Shown here piece by piece: positions 1-8,516 of a DNA stretch of 64,000 nucleotides. The stretch covers positions 768,001 through 832,000 of the forward strand of contig OY759353.1 of assembly GCA_963662315.1 (NCBI GenBank), read 5' to 3'. The DNA is from Geopsychrobacteraceae bacterium (GTDB lineage: Bacteria > Desulfobacterota > Desulfuromonadia > Desulfuromonadales > Geopsychrobacteraceae). The number at the start of each line of letters is the position of its first letter. Within the stretch, counting starts at the first letter, position 1. The translations under genes and the position numbers were made by a program. The notes under the pieces are model-generated. The model was not told the origin of the DNA, searched no databases, and saw only the letters and a program-made list of their open reading frames with translations.

Positions 1-398
1 CTGACCGCTTCGGTTTGTCACAGCTTCATCAGTTGCGTGGTCGGGTTGGTCGTGGTGCAGAGCAGAGCTATTGTATTTTGATTCCCTCTGAAAATTACAG
101 CCATGACGCCGACCGTCGCCTTCAGGTTATGGTGCAGACCAACGATGGTTTCAAAATTGCCGAGGCCGACCTCGAAATACGTGGCCCTGGCGATTTTCTT
201 GGTACAAGGCAAGCGGGCTTACCCGAATTCAGGGTTGCAAACCTGGTAAAAGATCTCCAAATTCTTGAAGTCGCACGTAATGAAGCATTTGCCTATGTTG
301 CCAAAAGCGATAATCTAGAGACTCCTGAAGCTCAAATTATCCGGTCTGAATTGGTTAGAAGATGGGGGGGACGACTGGAATTAGCCGCTATAGGCTGA
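1..398 (+). CDS. recG: ATP-dependent DNA helicase RecG, 3' part (truncated by window edge)
   Basis: Helicase motif VI '[17 protein letters not shown]' and RecG TRG motif '[25 protein letters not shown]'; ORF runs off the left edge. Confidence 0.95.
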
Positions 399-434
399 TA
401 AGATAAACCTCTGACAAACTTTCAGGAGGCTGAT

Positions 435-1397
435 ATGAGAGCTGTTCAAGTTGAACAATTTGGTGAACCTCAAGTACTTAAAACTGTAGAAATGCCAAGT
501 CCTTATACATTAGAGCATCAGGTAAAGGTTGAAGTTAAGGCTGTTGGGGTTAATCCTGTTGATACATATATCAGAGCCGGTATTTATCCGCTAAAGCCTG
601 ATCTTCCATATGTCCCAGGAAATGATGCCGCTGGCATTATCTCTGAAGTTGGTTCTGGAGTACTACATCACAAAGTCGGGGATCACGTGTATGTCTTTGG
701 ACAGAATATTGGTGCCTATGCAGAGGAACTTGTCTGCAACCAAGCTCATGTTTATAGGCTGCCAGAGAATGTTTCATTTGTCACTGGTGCTGCCGTTGGC
801 GTTCCTTACACTACAGCGTTTTATGGGCTCATTTACCGCGCACAAGCGAAACCAGGAGAAACAATTCTTATTCATGGTGCTAGTGGCGCTGTTGGCTTGG
901 CTGCTATCCAGATCGCCAAGTCATACGGAATGCGCGTTATCGGCACCGCTGGTACTGAACAAGGTATAAGTTTACTCAAAGAACAAGGAGTCATTGCTGC
1001 TCTGAATCACCATGAGAATAATTATCTGGATGCGCTGGGTGAGCTGACATGTGATTGTGGCCCAGATGTTATTCTTGAAATGCTTGCTAATGTTAACCTG
1101 AATAACGATCTGAAGGTAATTGCCCGGCACGGTCGCATTGTTGTTATTGGGAATCGGGGCACGATTGAAATAAATCCTCGTGATACGATGGGGAAAAATG
1201 CATCTATCCTAGGGATGGCTGCTTTTAATGCTTCCAGGGCTGAGTTGTTTCAGATCCATTCGGCAATTTATTCTGGTCTTACAGATGGTCGTTTTAAACC
1301 GGTTATTCGTGTGGAATTACCATTGACCCGAGCAGCAGACGCTCACAAGCTTGTTATGGAACCCGGTGGAAACGGAAAGATTATTCTTGTCCCTTGA
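435..1397 (+). CDS. qor: NADPH:quinone oxidoreductase (zeta-crystallin/MDR family)
   Basis: 'GVNPVD', 'LPYVPGNDAAG', nucleotide-binding 'HGASGAVG', C-terminal 'GKIIL'; RBS GGAGG upstream. Confidence 0.88.
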   Translation: MRAVQVEQFGEPQVLKTVEMPSPYTLEHQVKVEVKAVGVNPVDTYIRAGIYPLKPDLPYVPGNDAAGIISEVGSGVLHHKVGDHVYVFGQNIGAYAEELVCNQAHVYRLPENVSFVTGAAVGVPYTTAFYGLIYRAQAKPGETILIHGASGAVGLAAIQIAKSYGMRVIGTAGTEQGISLLKEQGVIAALNHHENNYLDALGELTCDCGPDVILEMLANVNLNNDLKVIARHGRIVVIGNRGTIEINPRDTMGKNASILGMAAFNASRAELFQIHSAIYSGLTDGRFKPVIRVELPLTRAADAHKLVMEPGGNGKIILVP

Positions 1398-1484
1398 CCT
1401 TTTTAAGGGATATCTATCTAGGGGGTATATGAGATCGTCCGTTAGAAGGACCATTTGGAAACCTCAAATCTGGACGGTAATATT

Positions 1485-1512
1485 AGTTTACATAATATAT
1501 ATTATGCGACGT
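1485..1512 (-). promoter_or_regulatory. dif: dif-like XerCD recombination site (probable chromosomal dif / left junction of element)
   Basis: Minus strand reads ACGTCGCATAA-TATATA-TTATGTAAACT (11-6-11). The right arm and spacer match the B. subtilis dif as I recall it; the left arm has the GCATAA XerC core. Flanking core genes converge on this point. Confidence 0.85.
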
Positions 1513-1945
1513 TAAATATACGTCAATCCTTGGTGGGGTCTCTCGATGACCTCGCCACTCTCCAACCACCAACTTAACCCTAAAGTTACCCCTCTCGCTG
1601 ATGATCTGGTTGAAGTCTCCCTGACACTTCCGGATGATCTCGTTCATGACTTCCTCTTAGTCTTAGACTCACTGACCAATCTCGCCACCATTGTTCGAGC
1701 CAAGACCCGTTTAGCCAGGTACAAAGATAAAGCCGACGATATCCTTCAGGCCGAACGCTTCAAAGAGCGTGATGCTTTCTATGCTCGTGTCGTTAACCTG
1801 TACGACTGTCACATGGCTCGTGGCCTTAAACGTGATGCTGCTATCAAGCTGATCTCTAAGGAGCTACGCAAAGAAAAACATCCTTGGGCCTCGATCGAGT
1901 TGGTCAGGTCTTCTCTTGTTGCTGGTGGCCGGCCTCGTCAACGGA
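1496..1945 (+). repeat. ~450-bp direct repeat, copy A (partner 4034-4486)
   Basis: Direct comparison by eye: about 16 substitutions plus a 3-nt insertion in copy B. Confidence 0.95.
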
Positions 1946-1956
1946 GGAACTCATGA
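1546..1956 (+). CDS. Hypothetical 136-aa element protein (orf1), basic, with a possible helix-turn-helix-like C-terminus
   Basis: Retained in both copies with mostly synonymous differences; stop codon overlaps the rep start (ATGA). Confidence 0.8.
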   Translation: MTSPLSNHQLNPKVTPLADDLVEVSLTLPDDLVHDFLLVLDSLTNLATIVRAKTRLARYKDKADDILQAERFKERDAFYARVVNLYDCHMARGLKRDAAIKLISKELRKEKHPWASIELVRSSLVAGGRPRQRRNS

Positions 1957-2969
1957 ACTCCTCCGCTCCGATCCTTGCGGGGGCGTCCTGTAACACGCCC
2001 CCGCTAAATACAGAACCAACCCTTGATATTGCTACTATTCCTGAACAAAATCGAATAGTTATAGATTGGCTTGAAGTGACACTTCCTGACGAGTTTCGAT
2101 TGCAAAATAAATATCATTCCTTGAAGCATTATATCCGTATCTCTGGGGCTAAATTCAGTACTGCTCCCCGTGGCATGAATGGTTATTTGACCCGCATCAT
2201 TTACGGCAAAGCAGAGATTCTCATGGATGGCTCCGAAGGTATGGGCGTACACGTTATTCTTTCCGGTCAAGCCCTCCGGCAAATGGAGAATAGCCCTCTG
2301 GATTTTCTGCATTGGTGCCTCCACCATGATGGGAAGGTTTCCCGGATCGACCTTGCGTTGGATGATGTATCAGGCGAATTGACCCTCAATCGCGTTAAGC
2401 GTGCTGTTCGTGCTGGTGCTGCTTCCTGCAAGGCTAAACAGTATCGTCACATGGAAAGCGGTAAAGTCTCGACCGGTGAAGTCACTGGGGAAACTTTTTA
2501 TTTTGGATCAGCAAAGAGCGATACTCAGTATCGTATTTATGATAAGGCTGCAGAGCAAGGTCTAGATGGGCATTGGGTCCGCTGTGAAGGTCAATATCGG
2601 CATGAAAACGCTCATCGTGTCGCCCAGTTGGTCCATGCTGCAAAATTCGATATCGGCCCTATTTTCTGCGGTCTTCTCCGAGGCTATCTCAACTTCTTAA
2701 AGCCTTCGAAGACTGATAGCAATAAAAGCCGCTGGAAGGTCGCTTCTTGGTGGCTCGATCTTCTGCAAAGTGCTGAAAAGATAAAACTTTCCGTTCCAAA
2801 ACAGAAACCTACGATGGAACAGAAACTTAAATCGTTCACTAAACAAATGGCTCCAACTCTGGCAATGCTCGCAAGCTATTATCCTTCTCAAGTGATGAAA
2901 GATATGATGATGAATGGTAGATCCAGGTTAACTCAGGAGCAGCTAGAAATGTGTACGATTCCATTCTAA
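1953..2969 (+). CDS. Rolling-circle replication initiator, Rep_trans (PF02486-type; RstA/NicK/pT181 RepC-like)
   Basis: Motifs 'IDWLEVT', 'SRIDLALDD', 'GETFYFGS', 'RIYDKAAEQ', 'WVRCEGQYR'. ATG at 1953 with GGAGG at 1943-1947 is preferred over the TTG at 1884. Confidence 0.9.
   Translation: MNSSAPILAGASCNTPPLNTEPTLDIATIPEQNRIVIDWLEVTLPDEFRLQNKYHSLKHYIRISGAKFSTAPRGMNGYLTRIIYGKAEILMDGSEGMGVHVILSGQALRQMENSPLDFLHWCLHHDGKVSRIDLALDDVSGELTLNRVKRAVRAGAASCKAKQYRHMESGKVSTGEVTGETFYFGSAKSDTQYRIYDKAAEQGLDGHWVRCEGQYRHENAHRVAQLVHAAKFDIGPIFCGLLRGYLNFLKPSKTDSNKSRWKVASWWLDLLQSAEKIKLSVPKQKPTMEQKLKSFTKQMAPTLAMLASYYPSQVMKDMMMNGRSRLTQEQLEMCTIPF
1977..2004 (+). promoter_or_regulatory. Candidate nick-site hairpin (dso/oriT-like) inside the 5' end of rep
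   Basis: Perfect 10-bp stem GCGGGGGCGT/ACGCCCCCGC with loop CCTGTAAC. Confidence 0.55.
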
Positions 2970-3082
2970 CAATTTGCCGTTTATAGGGGAACGGCACTCG
3001 CGCAAGGGTTTCTTAACACTGCACTCCCCTACTCTTTCTCATACTGTCAGTTCTTGTAGTTCCAGCTGCTAGAACGATGCAT

Positions 3083-3112
3083 ACCGGTAGACTCTCTACT
3101 ACCGGTTTTTTT
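3083..3112 (+). terminator. Intrinsic terminator-like hairpin downstream of rep
   Basis: ACCGGTAG-actctcta-CTACCGGT followed by a T-run. Confidence 0.6.
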
Positions 3113-3127
3113 ATGGTGCGGAACAAT

Positions 3128-3404
3128 GCCGGTTGCGGTTGCGGGTTAACCCCGCACCGCACCGGCTTTAACCGCACCGCTCACCAATCCCGCTAGTTAT
3201 TTGCTGCTCCGCTACGCCATGCAAAACCATTTGTTTCTCTAAGAGAGACAGGCGCGCAACAGTTTGTAGCTACCTTCGTTTAGGTCAGGCGGCCCGCAAG
3301 GCCGAGCGACTGGGGACCCGCACGGGGTTACGTCCCCGTGTGGGGATTGGAAGCGATCCTGAACGACGGTAATAAGCCCCGATCTGTAACACTGGGGCGC
3401 TTAT
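3128..3404 (+). other. Hairpin-dense intergenic region (candidate single- and double-strand origin region)
   Basis: Stem-loops at 3128-3166, 3321-3340 (CACGGGG-ttacgt-CCCCGTG) and 3372-3404 (GCCCC-gatCTGTAACACt-GGGGC). Confidence 0.55.
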
Positions 3405-3418
3405 CTCAATTTTTTACT

Positions 3419-3452
3419 TTGACAATGGTGCTAGAAAAGTAGTACTACTTTT
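3419..3452 (+). promoter_or_regulatory. Sigma70-like promoter with an 18-bp palindromic operator upstream of the RHH gene
   Basis: TTGACA at 3419-3424; perfect palindrome AAAAGTAGTACTACTTTT at 3435-3452 covering the -10 position. Confidence 0.65.
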
Positions 3453-3476
3453 ATATTCCAACATGGAGGAAATATT

Positions 3477-3740
3477 ATGGCTCATGCTGACAGGAAGCAA
3501 TTTTCTATTTATTTAACTGATGAGCAAAACGAAAAGATTACTAAGTATGCTAAAAAGCTTGATATCTCAAAGCAAAGAATGATGTCAAATCTCCTTGATA
3601 TCGGTCTGGAAGATGTAGCAGTTCTTGATAAGATGGGCGTTTTGTTTTTAGGCGCAAGGGTTCGTGATCTAGTTCATAAGATCAAAAATGTTGACCCTGA
3701 TAAATTGGAGTCTTATTACGACGAATCGGAAGAGAGTTGA
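3477..3740 (+). CDS. Ribbon-helix-helix (CopG-like) DNA-binding protein
   Basis: 'RKQFSIYLTDEQNEKITKYAKKLDISKQRMMSNLL' has the beta-strand plus two-helix RHH pattern; RBS GGAGG at 3465-3469. Confidence 0.75.
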   Translation: MAHADRKQFSIYLTDEQNEKITKYAKKLDISKQRMMSNLLDIGLEDVAVLDKMGVLFLGARVRDLVHKIKNVDPDKLESYYDESEES

Positions 3741-3782
3741 CGTGTAGGTCAGTTTAATACTAGGATCTCAACCAATAAATGG

Positions 3783-3947
3783 TACAAGGACAGGTAACGC
3801 CAATTACCATATCTTGTATATGACAATTTGAACAGGAAAGCCCCTCAGAGCGCCAACTCCGAGAGGCTTAAACAAGGTGAAGCAGCAGAGCGCCAACTCT
3901 TTAGCTTCGTCGAATACCACCATCCTTCGGGGGATCAGGGGATTCTT
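3783..3947 (-). ncRNA. Candidate counter-transcribed antisense RNA with three UUGGCG-capped stem-loops
   Basis: Hairpin loops CGCCAA (+ strand) at 3798-3803, 3851-3856 and 3891-3896; minus-strand promoter directly upstream. Confidence 0.55.
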
Positions 3948-3952
3948 TTGTG

Positions 3953-3981
3953 ATCATATTTGTAATATGGGGATGTGTCAA
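3953..3981 (-). promoter_or_regulatory. Near-consensus sigma70 promoter firing leftwards
   Basis: Minus strand TTGACA (3981-3976), 17-nt spacer, TATGAT (3958-3953). Confidence 0.7.
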
Positions 3982-4022
3982 CCTCTCTCCTTCTTTGACG
4001 AATTATCAAAGAAAAACGAGAC

Positions 4023-4050
4023 ATTCAAAAACCTATATATTATGCGACGT
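4023..4050 (-). promoter_or_regulatory. Hybrid dif site (right junction): intact XerC arm and spacer, degenerate XerD arm
   Basis: Minus strand ACGTCGCATAA-TATATA-GGTTTTTGAAT; 17 bp identical to the site at 1496-1512, other arm diverged. Confidence 0.8.
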
Positions 4051-4083
4051 TAAATATACGTCAATCCGTGGTGGGGTCTCTCG

Positions 4084-4494
4084 ATGACCTCGCCATTCTC
4101 CAACCACCAACTTAACCCTAAAGTCACCCCTCTTGCTGATGATCTGGTTGAAGTCTCCCTGACGCTGCCGGATGATCTCGTCCATGACTTCCTCTTAGTC
4201 TTAGACTCACTGACAAACCTAGCCACCATTGTCCGAGCCAAGACCCGTTTAGCCAGGTACAAAGATAAGGCCGACGATATCCTTCAGGCCGAACGCTTCA
4301 AAGAGCGTGATGCTTTTTTCTATGCTCGTGTCGTTAACCTGTACGACTGTCACATGGCTCGTGGCCTTAAACGTGATGCAGCTATTAAGCTGATCTCTCA
4401 GGAGCTACGCAAAGAGAAACATCCTTGGGCCTCGATCGAGTTGGTCAGGTCTTCTCTTGTTGCTGGTGGCCGGCCTCGTCAACGGAAGACTTAA
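4084..4494 (+). CDS. Hypothetical element protein orf1, second allele
   Basis: Near-identical to 1546-1956: L5F, one extra F, one K>Q, altered last residues. Confidence 0.8.
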   Translation: MTSPFSNHQLNPKVTPLADDLVEVSLTLPDDLVHDFLLVLDSLTNLATIVRAKTRLARYKDKADDILQAERFKERDAFFYARVVNLYDCHMARGLKRDAAIKLISQELRKEKHPWASIELVRSSLVAGGRPRQRKT

Positions 4495-4649
4495 AGCATT
4501 ACATAAAAGAATTGTTCACCAAGCAAGTCGCCCCGTCCATGGCCTTTCTCTTTAAATATTACGGCCCTGAAACTATGGCCGAAATCATGACAAACGGCAT
4601 GTCTCGTTTAACTCAGGAACAACGGGAACTCTGTTCGATTCCGTTTTAG
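4487..4649 (+). pseudogene. Rep_trans C-terminal remnant
   Basis: 'FTKQVAPSMAFLFKYYGPETMAEIMTNGMSRLTQEQRELCSIPF' aligns with the Rep end 'FTKQMAPTLAMLASYYPSQVMKDMMMNGRSRLTQEQLEMCTIPF'; catalytic region absent. Confidence 0.8.
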
Positions 4650-4654
4650 AAAGG

Positions 4655-4858
4655 TTAATGATTTTCTGCAACCCAAGATTTTTCTATGCGATCAAAAACA
4701 TAATTCTTAACAATATTGCTACCGATAGGACCACCGATGCCTTCAATGCGCAGATCTCCTCCGGCATATTTAGATGACACAGCTTTGGCTTGTTCAAGAC
4801 TATTTGTAGATTCAACTAGTTTGCCATTGACGTAAAGGTTGTAAATGTAATCGGACAT
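4655..4858 (-). CDS. Small hypothetical protein (67 aa), possible element cargo
   Basis: ATG at 4858 preceded by AGGAG; converges on the rep remnant. Confidence 0.55.
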   Translation of the reverse strand: MSDYIYNLYVNGKLVESTNSLEQAKAVSSKYAGGDLRIEGIGGPIGSNIVKNYVFDRIEKSWVAENH

Positions 4859-5070
4859 TTCAACTCCTTGAGGCTGATAGCTATTCACGATGCTGATACG
4901 CTTAATAATTTATCAGAACATTTAGACATGGCAATCCTTCTGTTTTTTTCTGGATGACTGCAAATAAGCTTTCTGAAAACATCTTAATGATTGGGCTTCC
5001 CGCTTTCCAAGCAAAAGCTCTAGCCTGGGATTACAGGCTAGAAAAAATGGATAAATACATGGTGACAATA

Positions 5071-5103
5071 AAAAAGCCGACTTGTTGTTCAAGTCGGCTT
5101 TTT
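5071..5103. terminator. Bidirectional intrinsic terminator downstream of tRNA-Pro
   Basis: AAAAAGCCGACTTG-ttgtt-CAAGTCGGCTTTTT. Confidence 0.85.
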
Positions 5104-5106
5104 ACA

Positions 5107-5183
5107 TGGTCGGGATGATAGGATTTGAACCTACGGCCCCTTGACCCCCAGTCAAGTGCGCTACCAGACTGCGCCACATCCCG
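5107..5183 (-). tRNA. tRNA-Pro(GGG)
   Basis: Minus strand CGGGATGTGGCGCAGTCTGGTAGCGCA...CTTGA-CTGGGGG-TCAAG...GGTTCAAATCC...CCCGACCA; upstream TTGACA-17-AATAAT with a GC-rich discriminator. Confidence 0.97.
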
Positions 5184-5252
5184 TTAAACTTAACAGCGCC
5201 GCGAATTATTAATTATTCAATGTCGCTTGTCAAGGACAATTACCGTGTTTTG

Positions 5253-6149
5253 TTATTGGTTGGAATGTTTTAAGTCCGCGATAATTCCTTCGAGTAATCC
5301 TGAGTCGGAAACCCGAATGTGTTCCTGATTGAATTTATTGGCTAATGCTAGCAATATTTGCATGCCTGGAATAATAAGGTCTCCCCTGCCCGCTTCCATT
5401 CCTAGGAGTTGTTCCCTCTCTGTGATAGAAAGAGGCTGCATATAAGAGTGTATTTCGCTTAGCCAGCCGGTTGATATGGCGGAATTATTAATAAGGTCTA
5501 CATCGTACTCAGTAAGTCCAAGTTGCATGGCAGAGAGCGTTGTCACTGTACCTGCCGTACCGATTAATTCGTAGCGCATATGACCTAGTCCTGCGTTGGT
5601 AAGCCGCTCGACGAAGTCGTTCATTGTCATTTCAATAAAATTTATACAAGCTTCTGCACTGTCATACTCCTCACAAAGTCTAACCACTCCTAAAGGATAA
5701 CTATGTTGAAGTTTTGTCTGCTTATTTTGGATACAGATCAATTCCGTGCTTCCGCCGCCAATATCAATGATAATAGCCGTTTGCGGCATGGGATCCATTA
5801 CGGACAAGACGCCGCTGGTGGTCAGCATTGCTTCGGTGTCACCGGAAATAACGTCGAGTCTGATTCCTGTCTGGTCATGTACTGAGTCAAGGAACTGTTG
5901 GCTATTTTTTGCCCTTCTGACCGCTTCGGTTGCCACCGCACGATAACAAGTAACCTTGGCCTCAGCCATTATTTGGCTGAAGTCTTTCAACGCCGCCAGG
6001 GTTCTGTCCATACTGGCATGATTAAGGCAGCCATTGGAAAATTGCCCAGAAAGACGCGTTACCTGGCGATGATAGAGCTGGGTTCTGTGTTGTTCGTCTG
6101 CGATTAGAAGTCTGACAGTATTGCTACCGACATCAATAGCTCCTAACAT
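5253..6149 (-). CDS. ppx: Ppx/GppA family exopolyphosphatase
   Basis: 'AIDVGSNTVRL', 'ATEAVRRAKN', 'DIGGGSTE', 'GLLEG'. Confidence 0.9.
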   Translation of the reverse strand: MLGAIDVGSNTVRLLIADEQHRTQLYHRQVTRLSGQFSNGCLNHASMDRTLAALKDFSQIMAEAKVTCYRAVATEAVRRAKNSQQFLDSVHDQTGIRLDVISGDTEAMLTTSGVLSVMDPMPQTAIIIDIGGGSTELICIQNKQTKLQHSYPLGVVRLCEEYDSAEACINFIEMTMNDFVERLTNAGLGHMRYELIGTAGTVTTLSAMQLGLTEYDVDLINNSAISTGWLSEIHSYMQPLSITEREQLLGMEAGRGDLIIPGMQILLALANKFNQEHIRVSDSGLLEGIIADLKHSNQ

Positions 6150-7838
6150 TTACTTTTTTCCAATAACGGCTTCAGAAACGTTAAATGTGTGATCGCCTAT
6201 TTTTTCGAAGCTATGCAGCATGTCGATATATACAAGTCCGGGTTGTACCGCACATTCACCGGTGTTGAGGCGCGAGATATGGTTCATGCGTAAACGCTCT
6301 TCCAGATCATCGATAGCGTCTTCATACTCCATGGCACGCTTTTCGATGGTTTTGTCTTCTTTATCCATGGCTTCAATTGTGAATGATAGGAATTCTTTTG
6401 CCTTATTGGCAATCTCTGTCATTTCCGTTTCGCCGAGATCAGAGAAGTTGATTTTCTCCTCAATCTTCCTGCTGCCGAGCTGCCATAAATTTTCACAATG
6501 ATCGCCGATTCGCTCGAGGTCATTGACCATATTCATGAGCGAGCCAATAGTTTCAGAGGTTTCGGTAGAGATAGATTTTTGTGATAATTTAACCAGAAAG
6601 GCCATGATCTCTTTTTGTAGTATGTCAACAAGCTCTTCCTTTTTTTCTAAGCCACGAATGCGTTTATAATCCCCATCCTGAAGGAAAAGAATTGTCTCAT
6701 CGACCATTTCCTGAGCGATCTGAGCCATGCGACGGGTCTCTCGCCGTGCCTGGCCTATGGCAACAGGCGGAGTATTTAAGACCCGGTCGTCAATAAATTT
6801 AACCTGAAAAGTCTCTACATCCAGTTCCCCTCGGATCAACATTGTTGATAATTTGGCCAACAGACCGATAAAGGGTAGAAAAACCAGTGTATTGATAATA
6901 TTGAAGAGCGTATGTGTGTTGGCAATGTGGCGAGCGATGTAGGGTTTGTCTCCAATGGCTGCTGCAAATTGCTGAGCCTGCTCCTGGGTTTGAATTACAA
7001 AATCAGCATCACCTGGTGTGATTGAAGAGATAAATTTTAAAAACAGTGGAAACAGCATCAACATGTAAGCGACGCCAATAGCATTGAACAGAAAGTGGGA
7101 AAAAGCGGTACGCTTGGCAGCTACATTGGTGCCGATAGCTGCCAGGTTTGCAGTTATAGTGGTACCGATATTTTCACCAAGAATTAAGGCGACACTGGCT
7201 TCAAAAGAGATCAGTCCAGAACTCGCTAATGCCAGGGTAATGCCGATCGTTGCACTGCTGCTTTGGACTATAACCGTCAATAGGGCGCCAATTAAAACAC
7301 CAAGCAGTTTGTAATCACCTACAAGAAGAAATAGTTGGCGAAATTCTTCGCTGGTTTTCAGGGGATCAAAGGCTGTTTTCATGGTCGAGAGACCAAAAAA
7401 AAGTAGACCGAAACCGAGGATAATTTCACCTGTATAGCTGGATTTACGGTTACGACTAAAAAGCTTTAGCCCTGCACCGATTCCAATAGCTGGCAAGGCG
7501 AATTTAGTAATTTTAAATGCTATAAGTTGAGCGGTGATTGTTGTTCCGATATTGGCACCAAGTATGACGCCAATCGACTGTACCAGAGACAATAGTCCGG
7601 CGTTAACAAAGCCAACAACCATAACTGTTGTTGCACTTGATGATTGTATGATGGCAGTAACCGCTAAGCCAACCAGCGCGCCAATGATTCTATTGTTGGT
7701 CAGTACCGCCAGAATCTTTCGCATTTTGTCGCCAGCGATCTTTTGCAGTCCTTCGGACATGATTTTCATTCCGAAAAGGAACATTCCAAGACCGCCAAGC
7801 AGGCCAAATAACAGTTTCTGACTGAGCAATACCGACAT
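6150..7838 (-). CDS. Na/Pi cotransporter family protein with PhoU-like C-terminus
   Basis: Two 'QSSSAT' repeats, 'GANIGTT'/'GENIGTT', 'NDLERIGDH'. Confidence 0.92.
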   Translation of the reverse strand: MSVLLSQKLLFGLLGGLGMFLFGMKIMSEGLQKIAGDKMRKILAVLTNNRIIGALVGLAVTAIIQSSSATTVMVVGFVNAGLLSLVQSIGVILGANIGTTITAQLIAFKITKFALPAIGIGAGLKLFSRNRKSSYTGEIILGFGLLFFGLSTMKTAFDPLKTSEEFRQLFLLVGDYKLLGVLIGALLTVIVQSSSATIGITLALASSGLISFEASVALILGENIGTTITANLAAIGTNVAAKRTAFSHFLFNAIGVAYMLMLFPLFLKFISSITPGDADFVIQTQEQAQQFAAAIGDKPYIARHIANTHTLFNIINTLVFLPFIGLLAKLSTMLIRGELDVETFQVKFIDDRVLNTPPVAIGQARRETRRMAQIAQEMVDETILFLQDGDYKRIRGLEKKEELVDILQKEIMAFLVKLSQKSISTETSETIGSLMNMVNDLERIGDHCENLWQLGSRKIEEKINFSDLGETEMTEIANKAKEFLSFTIEAMDKEDKTIEKRAMEYEDAIDDLEERLRMNHISRLNTGECAVQPGLVYIDMLHSFEKIGDHTFNVSEAVIGKK

Positions 7839-7957
7839 GAGCTCTCTCCGTTTAATTAATGAAAAACAAATGTTTGACTAACCGAATTCTAATAGAACAT
7901 CAGATATAATGGTAAATTTTGCGCGAATACTATAATGCATAGGCATAATTCTCAACC

Positions 7958-7991
7958 AAAAAAGGCCAGTGTTAATACACTGGCCTTTTTT
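7958..7991. terminator. Bidirectional intrinsic terminator
   Basis: AAAAAAGGCCAGTGT-taat-ACACTGGCCTTTTTT. Confidence 0.8.
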
Positions 7992-8045
7992 AATAGTGTT
8001 CCGCGTTGGAATAAGTATACTCTTGGGAGACTTATTTATGTCATT

Positions 8046-8516
8046 TTAGCGATTTAACGTTGCCAGAAGCATGGTTCTGTAGTCCTTCTTTGCCGTGCGC
8101 ATCTTACCGATAAAAATTTTCATTATATTCATGGCAATCTGCAGGCCGAGTCTGGGTTTTTCACTGGCAAGAGAATTAAAGGTTTTTCGTTCCAGGCCAT
8201 AAAGAATAGCATTCTCTGCGATTCTGGCCGTGCTCGCTCGCGGCCCCTCATCAATGATGGCCAATTCACCGAAAATATCTCCTGCACCAAGAACAACCAT
8301 TATCTGCTCATCCGTTTCGGCGAGCATCTGAGAAATTTGAACTGTTCCGGATTTAATCAGGTAAAGTGCTTCTCCTGACATGTTTTCAATGAATACCGTT
8401 TTGCCTTCAGCAATTTTTCTGATTGAAAAGACCGAATTAAGATATTCGATTTCCTTGGTAGCCAACCCTTTAAATAAAGGGCTATCGGACAGGTCTGTTA
8501 AGTCAATATCACTCAA
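8046..8516 (-). CDS. Cyclic-nucleotide-binding domain protein
   Basis: 'GDIFGELAIIDEGPRASTA' cNMP pocket; no HTH. Confidence 0.85.
   Translation of the reverse strand: MSDIDLTDLSDSPLFKGLATKEIEYLNSVFSIRKIAEGKTVFIENMSGEALYLIKSGTVQISQMLAETDEQIMVVLGAGDIFGELAIIDEGPRASTARIAENAILYGLERKTFNSLASEKPRLGLQIAMNIMKIFIGKMRTAKKDYRTMLLATLNR

Follow-up and report, generated by a model that had tools for sequence, protein, structure and literature searches.

Why should three neighbouring hairpins on a small mobile element all be capped by the same six bases? The element lies in a 64,000-nt stretch of a Geopsychrobacteraceae genome (assembly GCA_963662315.1, contig OY759353.1, positions 768,001 to 832,000). This whole stretch is referred to here as the window, and coordinates count from its first base unless a relative or the genome is named. 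The element is inserted at the chromosomal dif site and encodes a rolling-circle initiator, Rep; its hairpins stand next to a promoter that points away from the rep operon. An initial annotation had read this arrangement as an antisense RNA system for copy control or attenuation. Our analysis leads to a similar view. We put at about 65% the probability that the hairpins are the core of a cis-antisense countertranscript control module for the rep operon of a dif-integrating rolling-circle element.

The three hairpins capped by CGCCAA are where the initial annotation placed them. Hairpin 1 (3783-3818, assigned to neither strand) has an inner stem, GGTAA-CGCCAA-TTACC, at 3793-3808 and an outer stem, TACAAG/CTTGTA, at 3783-3788 and 3813-3818. 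Hairpin 2 (3838-3869, AAGCCCCTCAGAG-CGCCAA-CTCCGAGAGGCTT) and hairpin 3 (3879-3908, GAAGCAGCAGAG-CGCCAA-CTCTTTAGCTTC) are both assigned to the minus strand, where their loop reads UUGGCG. Hairpin 2 forms 13 base pairs on the minus strand, two of them G.U pairs that become C.A/A.C mismatches on the plus strand, leaving 11 of the 13 positions paired there. In hairpin 3 a 3x3 internal loop separates a lower stem of 5 bp from an upper stem of 4 bp. The loops had been described as identical and the stems as different; the identity of the loops stands, but the stems are not wholly different, as hairpins 2 and 3 have the exact 14-mer CAGAGCGCCAACTC in common (repeat family D6), which gives them the same inner stem and confines the difference to the outer stems. 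The hexamer CGCCAA occurs 56 times on the two strands of the window, and inside the element only in the three loops. When a triple was defined as three hairpins with the same six-base loop, stems of at least 3 and all within 150 nt, this was the sole one in the window, and any such triple turned up in 1 of 200 block shuffles. The minus-strand RNA of 3741-3950 folds with z = -2.33, equalled by 4 of 200 shuffles, and the plus strand of 3741-4083 with z = -1.46, equalled by 8 of 100.

The module is present in ten genomes of the order, the window's own and nine others, with a one-hairpin form on a single metagenome contig (L068). Three of the nine and the contig were found through close relatives of Rep, with 62-74% identity (loci L002/L003, with four tandem copies, L004, L072 and L068). 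The other six (L093, L094, L095, L096, L106 and L108) were found with a covariance model of hairpins 3 and 2 in the minus sense, our model R1, which is not to be confused with plasmid R1; it matches the window at 3828-3911 with 96.8 bits. None of these six genomes has a match to Rep_trans at E 1e-20. The gene upstream of the module in L093 and L095 encodes a different protein, which has an H-F-H motif and no Pfam match and which we would guess to be an HUH-type initiator. The genome of L093 belongs to the window's own genus, and L093 occupies the qor-dif locus there, as the element does in the window.

A promoter on the minus strand would transcribe through the hairpins, as the initial annotation had noted. 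This promoter, Pas (3981-3953), reads TTGACA-17-TATGAT and scores 11/12 in a promoter scan. All 11 modules have it in the form TTGAC[AG]-17-TAnnnT, despite pairwise module identities of only 50-77%. A second, plus-strand promoter, P2 (3737-3766, TTGACG-18-TAGGAT, 9/12), lies at the end of the gene for a ribbon-helix-helix (RHH)-like protein. P2 is found just before hairpin 1 in nine of 11 modules (8/8 by pattern, plus L106), as TTGAC[TG] or TTGATG, a spacer of 17-18 nt, then TAGGAT, TACCAT, TACGAT or TAGATT, and was not found in L108 or L068. Across the window and all three relatives that were scanned, Pas scores 10-11/12 and P2 9/12.

Minus-strand hairpin 2 with its U-run is called an intrinsic terminator in all three relatives scanned (L072, L002 and L093), and it is likely to be the terminator of a countertranscript starting at Pas. 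We infer from the positions of Pas and this terminator an RNA from the minus strand of 3828-3946, of about 117 nt should transcription stop past hairpin 2, or about 170 nt should it run on through hairpin 1. Because the antisense terminator of the relatives sits past the second hairpin, the countertranscript probably carries two hairpins, leaving hairpin 1 to the leader alone. On the plus strand a putative attenuator, a hairpin at 3912-3945 followed by UUUUGUG (3912-3952), is the complement of what would be the 5' stem-loop of the countertranscript. A weak plus-strand hairpin and U-run occur between hairpin 3 and the -10 of Pas in 10 of 10 modules, and the scan calls a terminator there only in L002.

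The initial annotation had suggested covariation in homologues as a check on the hairpins, and the stems do covary. Across eight modules, 27 pairs are 96.3% paired with seven compensatory pairs; the observed values are reached by 0 of 500 shuffles on four measures out of five and by 1 of 500 on the remaining one. With ten distinct modules the figures are 22 pairs, 98.6% paired, seven compensatory pairs and 12 compensatory cells, and none of 500 shuffles reaches the observed value on a single one of the five, although these counts overstate the independence of modules that are related and whose alignment (A11) was fitted to the structure of the model; slid controls are 35-61% paired.

The pairing also differs between the strands. 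Of the 218 cells of hairpins 2 and 3, 215 are paired on the Pas-sense strand (29 as G.U) and 187 on the other. In seven of eight modules the isolated hairpin-2 RNA folds more stably on the minus strand (-19 to -23 kcal/mol) than on the plus strand (-10 to -13 kcal/mol). The inner stem of hairpin 1 has no such bias, its 40 cells being paired in 37 cases on the minus strand and in 38 on the plus strand. The pattern fits a minus-strand RNA that contains hairpins 3 and 2 and a hairpin 1 whose importance lies mainly in the plus-strand leader. The case for an antisense RNA is thus supported in silico by four features: Pas in 11 of 11 modules, covarying stems, minus-specific pairing through G.U, and minus-strand terminators in the relatives.

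The loops are given here in the minus sense, in the order hairpin 3, hairpin 2, hairpin 1. All three are UUGGCG in the window and L094, UUGCAG in L004 and L106, UUGCCG in L093 and L095, UUGUCG in L096 and CUGUAA in L108. L002 has UUGGUG, UUGGUG and UUGGCU, and L072 has UUGGCG, UUGCAG and UUGCAG. In L068 CUGCAA caps the one good hairpin and recurs inside a large loop; this Pas-sense hexamer is the reverse complement of the Pas-sense loop of L004 and L106. Eight of ten elements therefore have three identical loops, with five different hexamers, and shuffling the loops among the elements gives a mean of 0.40 all-identical elements, with none of 20000 shuffles reaching eight. The loops vary between elements but change in concert. 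Gene conversion is an unlikely cause, because hairpin 1 resembles the other two hairpins in nothing but the loop; we find selection acting on the loops the better reading. Even in L002, five of the six positions of the hairpin-1 loop (AGCCAA) can still pair with UUGGUG of the countertranscript, one of these through a wobble.

On the plus strand the relatives have CTGCAA, CGGCAA, CGACAA, CACCAA or TTACAG. The window's CGCCAA is one code among several, and its identity with the loops of plasmids R1 and ColIb-P9 is not homology, since the relatives use other loops and no Rfam CopA or countertranscript family matches. The search against Rfam, another check that had been proposed, gave no match to CopA, ctRNA_pT181, ctRNA_pGA1, ctRNA_p42d or RNAI in window positions 1-8000, nor in 3740-3990 at E up to 10. 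L072 gave only sub-threshold matches, driven by terminator shape, to ctRNA_pGA1 (29 bits against a threshold of 45) and ctRNA_p42d (15 against 50).

Identical repeats that change in concert, as in eight of ten elements, are a classical signature of protein binding. The loops, on RNA or single-stranded DNA, could be three sites for a protein of the element (the RHH-like protein, the product of ORF136, which has no known function, or Rep), the code co-evolving with that protein. We think this unlikely. The loop code follows no protein of the element, as RHH proteins 83% identical go with different codes, L002 lacks an RHH gene, and the module occurs with different upstream proteins. In the first of these cases the same G-to-C change is found in all three loops, separating UUGGCG in the window from UUGCCG in L093. 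A second type of RHH protein, in L004 and L095, goes with two further codes, and in L093 and L095, where the module follows the H-F-H protein, the genomes have no Rep_trans match at the threshold given above. No protein is common to all the modules, and the conserved Pas and minus-strand terminator would be left unexplained.

The element that carries the module is a 2538-bp unit (1496-4033), followed by a partial second copy 96-97% identical to it. In the tandem repeat (D1) the start at 4034 matches 1496, within the central region of a dif-like site. The left junction is the chromosomal dif (1485-1512, plus strand, 769485-769512 of the genome), AGTTTACATAA-TATATA-TTATGCGACGT, and the element's own attachment site, attP (4023-4050, plus strand), is dif-like, ATTCAAAAACC-TATATA-TTATGCGACGT. 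We take the arms to be those for XerD and XerC, by the E. coli dif consensus. The cumulative GC-skew maximum of the genome is at 769538 (window 1538), beside dif, and the full dif 24-mer occurs once in the genome. Contigs of other organisms, from the four sequencing runs compared, align only at about 1484-1517, the roughly 30-bp dif core; a junction of 1513 with 4381 appears on a single contig of low depth. The skew maximum at dif and the foreign contigs sharing only the dif core place the element in the true terminus dif, and it is a rolling-circle integrative mobile element exploiting Xer recombination (IMEX), as the initial annotation had supposed. It is inserted in dif at the terminus, has a dif-like attP and has no integrase of its own, its open reading frames (ORFs) being only ORF136, rep and the RHH-like gene. 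The GC-skew minimum is at 3059608, giving unequal replichores of about 2.29 and 2.42 Mb.

Rep (1953-2969, plus strand) matches Rep_trans (PF02486, E 8.4e-45, above the cut-off) and Rol_Rep_N (PF18106, E 1.7e-07). ORF136 (1546-1956, plus strand) encodes a conserved 136-residue protein, and its stop overlaps the start of rep (ATGA), an overlap also present in L002 and L004. Five homologues are 37-52% identical to it. ORF136 is kept in all five Rep_trans elements, and in L096 it starts after attP. It has no match in Pfam, PHROG or PDB sequences, or by Foldseek; it is predicted to fold as a beta-hairpin with a single helix of 60 residues and two short ones (predicted local distance difference test, pLDDT, 79), with no solved structure alike. 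The RHH/CopG-like putative repressor (87 residues, 3477-3740, plus strand) has weak matches only: RHH_3 in Pfam at E 0.081, RHH_1 at E 0.0028 for the L068 homologue, and CopG, weakly, as the top PDB match of its profile at E 0.08. A structure model of it was discarded for its low confidence (pLDDT 58).

The dif-like site lies 40-125 nt beyond Pas. A TTATGCGAC site follows Pas in seven of the eight modules read, and L093 has the chromosomal dif arm instead. No conserved plus-strand promoter was seen between Pas and the ORF136 start codon in the same eight modules. As the leader and ORF136-rep lie on opposite sides of attP, the module can drive rep only in a circular or tandem form, and in the window it now reads into the defective second copy.

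With a Rep_trans initiator, single-stranded DNA intermediates are to be expected, and the hairpins stand in a non-coding region upstream of the replication genes, adjoining attP. They could act in that DNA, as a single-strand origin or a packaging signal resembling the hairpin array of the Ff intergenic region, with the promoter incidental. This seems to us improbable. In such elements it is usually the coding-sense strand that is displaced or packaged, and by the pairing counts above only the strand opposite the genes keeps hairpins 2 and 3 intact. Known single-strand origins have loops conserved across a family, but these loops are specific to the element, and the hairpins are surrounded by a conserved sigma-70 promoter, which is of the double-strand type, and by conserved U-run terminators. 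Another conserved and covarying region is, moreover, available as an origin. This strongly conserved non-coding stretch (3280-3370, GAGCGACTGGGGACCCGCACGGGGTTACGTCCCCGTGTGGGGATTGGAAGCGATCCTGA) holds a 7-bp hairpin, CACGGGG-TTACGT-CCCCGTG (about 3318-3343), and recurs in L002 and L004 with compensatory stem changes. It is a candidate for the replication origin or nick-site hairpin, and a better candidate than the CGCCAA array. G+C-rich palindromes at 3110-3190, including GGTTGCGGGTTAACCCCGCACC (pair I4), lie just past the rep terminator (3083-3106) and might be a single-strand origin.

Antisense control of the rep leader, as we favour for the CGCCAA hairpins, has several precedents among plasmids. 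The initial annotation had compared the locus with copB-copA-tap-repA, and the layout bears this out, with an RHH/CopG-like gene (on weak matches), P2 at its end, a leader with hairpins, the convergent Pas and the ATGA junction of ORF136 and rep. For plasmid R1, passages of PMC5717011 describe copA lying over the copB-tap-repA intergenic region, two promoters and the coupling of tap to repA. R1 thus resembles the element in its small upstream repressor gene, the second promoter at the end of that gene, the convergent antisense gene over the leader, the coupled ORF before rep and the six-base UUGGCG/CGCCAA loop. It differs in being a theta replicon rather than a rolling-circle Rep_trans IMEX, whereas the element has three target hairpins with one shared loop and a coupled ORF that encodes a conserved 136-residue protein where that of R1 encodes a short leader peptide. 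The element's antisense RNA would also end about 135 nt before the ORF136 ribosome site, making a direct block of translation unlikely. The polarity of the loop is reversed, as had been claimed: here UUGGCG is on the antisense RNA, and Asano et al. 1998, to go by its title, reportedly place 5'-rUUGGCG-3' on the target RNA.

The initiator of pT181 belongs to the Rep_trans family, like that of the element. In pT181, and in pIP501 and pAMbeta1, a countertranscript acts against the rep leader through kissing hairpins, as we propose for the element, with a hairpin and U-run just past the target, and pIP501 has a repressor protein alongside its antisense RNA. Unlike these plasmids, the element has shown no pre-emptor pairing in its minimum-energy folds and has attP between its putative attenuator and its genes. 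ColE1 RNAI, of about 110 nt, likewise has several stem-loops that kiss their complements; its loops differ from one another and its target is a primer precursor, in contrast to the single shared loop here, and no Rfam RNAI match was found. RepB of pMV158 belongs to a different initiator family. As in pMV158/pLS1, the element is a rolling-circle replicon that would combine a putative RHH repressor, with CopG as its weak top PDB match, and a short antisense RNA from a convergent promoter. In pMV158, as passages of PMC5717011 and PMC4485353 have it, CopG acts with RNAII, a short antisense RNA, and RNAII differs from our predicted countertranscript in blocking repB translation through its 5' tail and not by multi-loop kissing (from the relevant part of PMC4485353). 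In the I-complex plasmids (ColIb-P9 with its Inc RNA, IncB/K with RNAI), a few bases at the top of the loop decide incompatibility, according to part of the text of PMC10724649. The element is like them in its hexaloop kissing motif, and its variable central dinucleotide matches such a loop-top compatibility code. According to the titles of papers, the I-complex systems depend on pseudoknot pairing of the loop with a complement that lies downstream. Unlike ColIb-P9, the element has no such complement, as no exact one was found from hairpin 3 up to the start of rep in any of four cases searched (the window, L002, L004 and L072), and TTGGCG is absent from the element's plus strand.

In a circular or tandem form, transcripts started at P2 and at the RHH-like gene's own promoter would give a leader with hairpins 1, 2 and 3 and their CGCCAA loops. 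The leader would then meet the weak hairpin and U-run at 3912-3952, cross attP and enter ORF136 and the translationally coupled rep. Pas would make an RNA of about 110-120 nt in which a 5' stem-loop is followed by the complement of hairpin 3 and then that of hairpin 2, both with UUGGCG loops; hairpin 2 would terminate it. Kissing between the UUGGCG and CGCCAA loops would start the pairing of the two RNAs and lower the expression of ORF136 and rep. The most likely route would be premature termination at the plus-strand hairpin and U-run, as in pT181 and pIP501, because the countertranscript ends so far before the ORF136 ribosome site and a hairpin with a U-run follows the target. The two central bases of the loop would act as a specificity code, for incompatibility or immunity. 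Kissing should be indifferent to which hairpin a loop sits on, and an element might do best with a single code on all its loops: kissing of any loop with any other would raise the binding rate and minimise cross-talk with other IMEXs at the same dif. Hairpin 1, outside the countertranscript in most relatives, would be an early docking site, by its loop alone, on the nascent leader.

Several points weigh against this picture, besides the relatedness of the aligned modules. In the window the scan calls no terminator at minus-strand hairpin 2, past which the U-run is weak (UUUCCUGUUC), and none at the plus-strand hairpin of 3912-3952. This plus-strand hairpin forms together with hairpins 1-3 in the minimum-energy fold, and its region has no consistent strand preference, the minus strand being the more stable in six of ten modules and the plus strand in four. 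Classical attenuators have a mutually exclusive antiterminator or pre-emptor; none is evident in the minimum-energy folds, in which no dedicated search for one was made, and the attenuation step is accordingly uncertain. Complementarity of sense and antisense RNA is automatic and does not itself require three identical loops, and any-to-any kissing as the cause of the single code is a conjecture of our own. L002 and L072 lack three identical loops. The YUNR U-turn motif of loops cannot be claimed, being present in only some of the loop types and absent from those with the CA, CC and UC codes. The sequencing runs that hold the stretch include none on record as RNA. A long-range antiterminator might conceivably form from the sequence flanking hairpin 2 on its 5' side and the 3' arm of that plus-strand hairpin; this pairs an A-run and C-run with a G-run and U-run, and the match may be a by-product of two terminators.

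A sense/antisense pair serving something other than copy control, in which an RNA from P2 (about 178 nt, ending at the plus-strand hairpin and U-run) and the countertranscript insulate or gate transcription across attP and so modulate Xer integration or excision, or superinfection immunity alone, would suit the position of the module beside a dif-like site or chromosomal dif arm in eight of the eight elements read, the opposite orientation of that site to the module in L093 and L108 and the plus-strand hairpin and U-run in 10 of 10, but is very improbable, as in the circle ORF136-rep comes next downstream with no conserved promoter of its own seen, so that any effect on read-through is an effect on rep, and as a precedent for RNA control of Xer recombination is neither known to us nor to be found in the portions of the literature that our search returned.

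The array beside the countertranscript module shows signs of decay. In the second, defective copy (4084-4649, plus strand, 96-97% identical to 1496-1948) ORF136 is intact (4084-4494) and rep is internally deleted (4425-4649); what is left of rep is an in-frame fusion of its N- and C-terminal ends, of 74 residues (window 4034-4650). A third dif-like site was not found anywhere in the window, and the right end of the array is therefore eroded. A tRNA-Pro (GGG) gene lies on the minus strand at 5068-5183, about 450 nt to the right of the eroded array, with a perfect 14-bp terminator hairpin at 5071-5103. In L004 (genome G118) an IS3-family insertion breaks the second tandem copy, and a different small element whose protein has an H-F-H motif comes next (6300-7378, 7932-8390). 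The dif there thus holds an array of unlike IMEXs. The contig of L068, the only locus from the metagenome scan, is 2496 bp long and repeats its first 133 or so bases at its end, as a circle or tandem of about 2363 bp would.

Most relatives have the motif (AC)ATTAGAAA twice on the plus strand, flanking hairpin 1, once after P2 and once before hairpin 2 (L002 2150-2235, L004 5755-5830, L072 3405-3490, and L093-L096). This motif, absent from the window, could be an operator or what remains of a duplicated unit.

Searches further afield added little. Comparing Rep with the plasmids of PLSDB (273 records) and the phages of INPHARED (74 records) gave identities all below 60%, the best about 32%, and no close relative; in IMG/VR it gave five loci, all distant. 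The pattern of hairpin 2 found four loci in IMG/VR, all unrelated phage terminators, and the weak matches of model R1, at E 2.8e-4 or worse, were ordinary terminators in the three cases inspected (L097-L099). A class-level search for Rep in 401 genomes found nothing past the four genomes already known, the window's own included. The distant Rep_trans loci L073, L074, L081, L084 and L085 (33-38% identity) have neither the module nor such promoters, and only L081 has a dif-like motif. L081 (G000:C1:3741998-3742894) is a second Rep_trans gene of the same genome, 33% identical, with no comparable module nearby. A sludge metagenome holds a relative of the module with about 85% identity (contigs of four runs compared).

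The shared hexaloop may be an evolvable address code, an idea we put forward tentatively and with more doubt than belief. Selection would keep the loop of hairpin 1 complementary in trans, and the codes GC, CA, CC, UC and GU, together with CUGUAA in L108, would define orthogonal immunity groups among small IMEXs competing for one dif, the module moving as a cassette between elements with unrelated replication proteins.

The control of copy number by antisense RNA is textbook knowledge for plasmids, and here it would be found on an element that integrates at dif; the portions of the literature that our search covered hold no earlier description of antisense control in such elements. Attenuator parts have been engineered from the RNA of pT181 (as part of PMC3753616 relates), and the family of loop codes is a ready source of orthogonal parts of this kind. 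Among the elements of this order nature has put at least five loop codes on a single scaffold, each varied in concert across three hairpins; such a series offers a direct test of kissing-loop specificity and of how incompatibility evolves.

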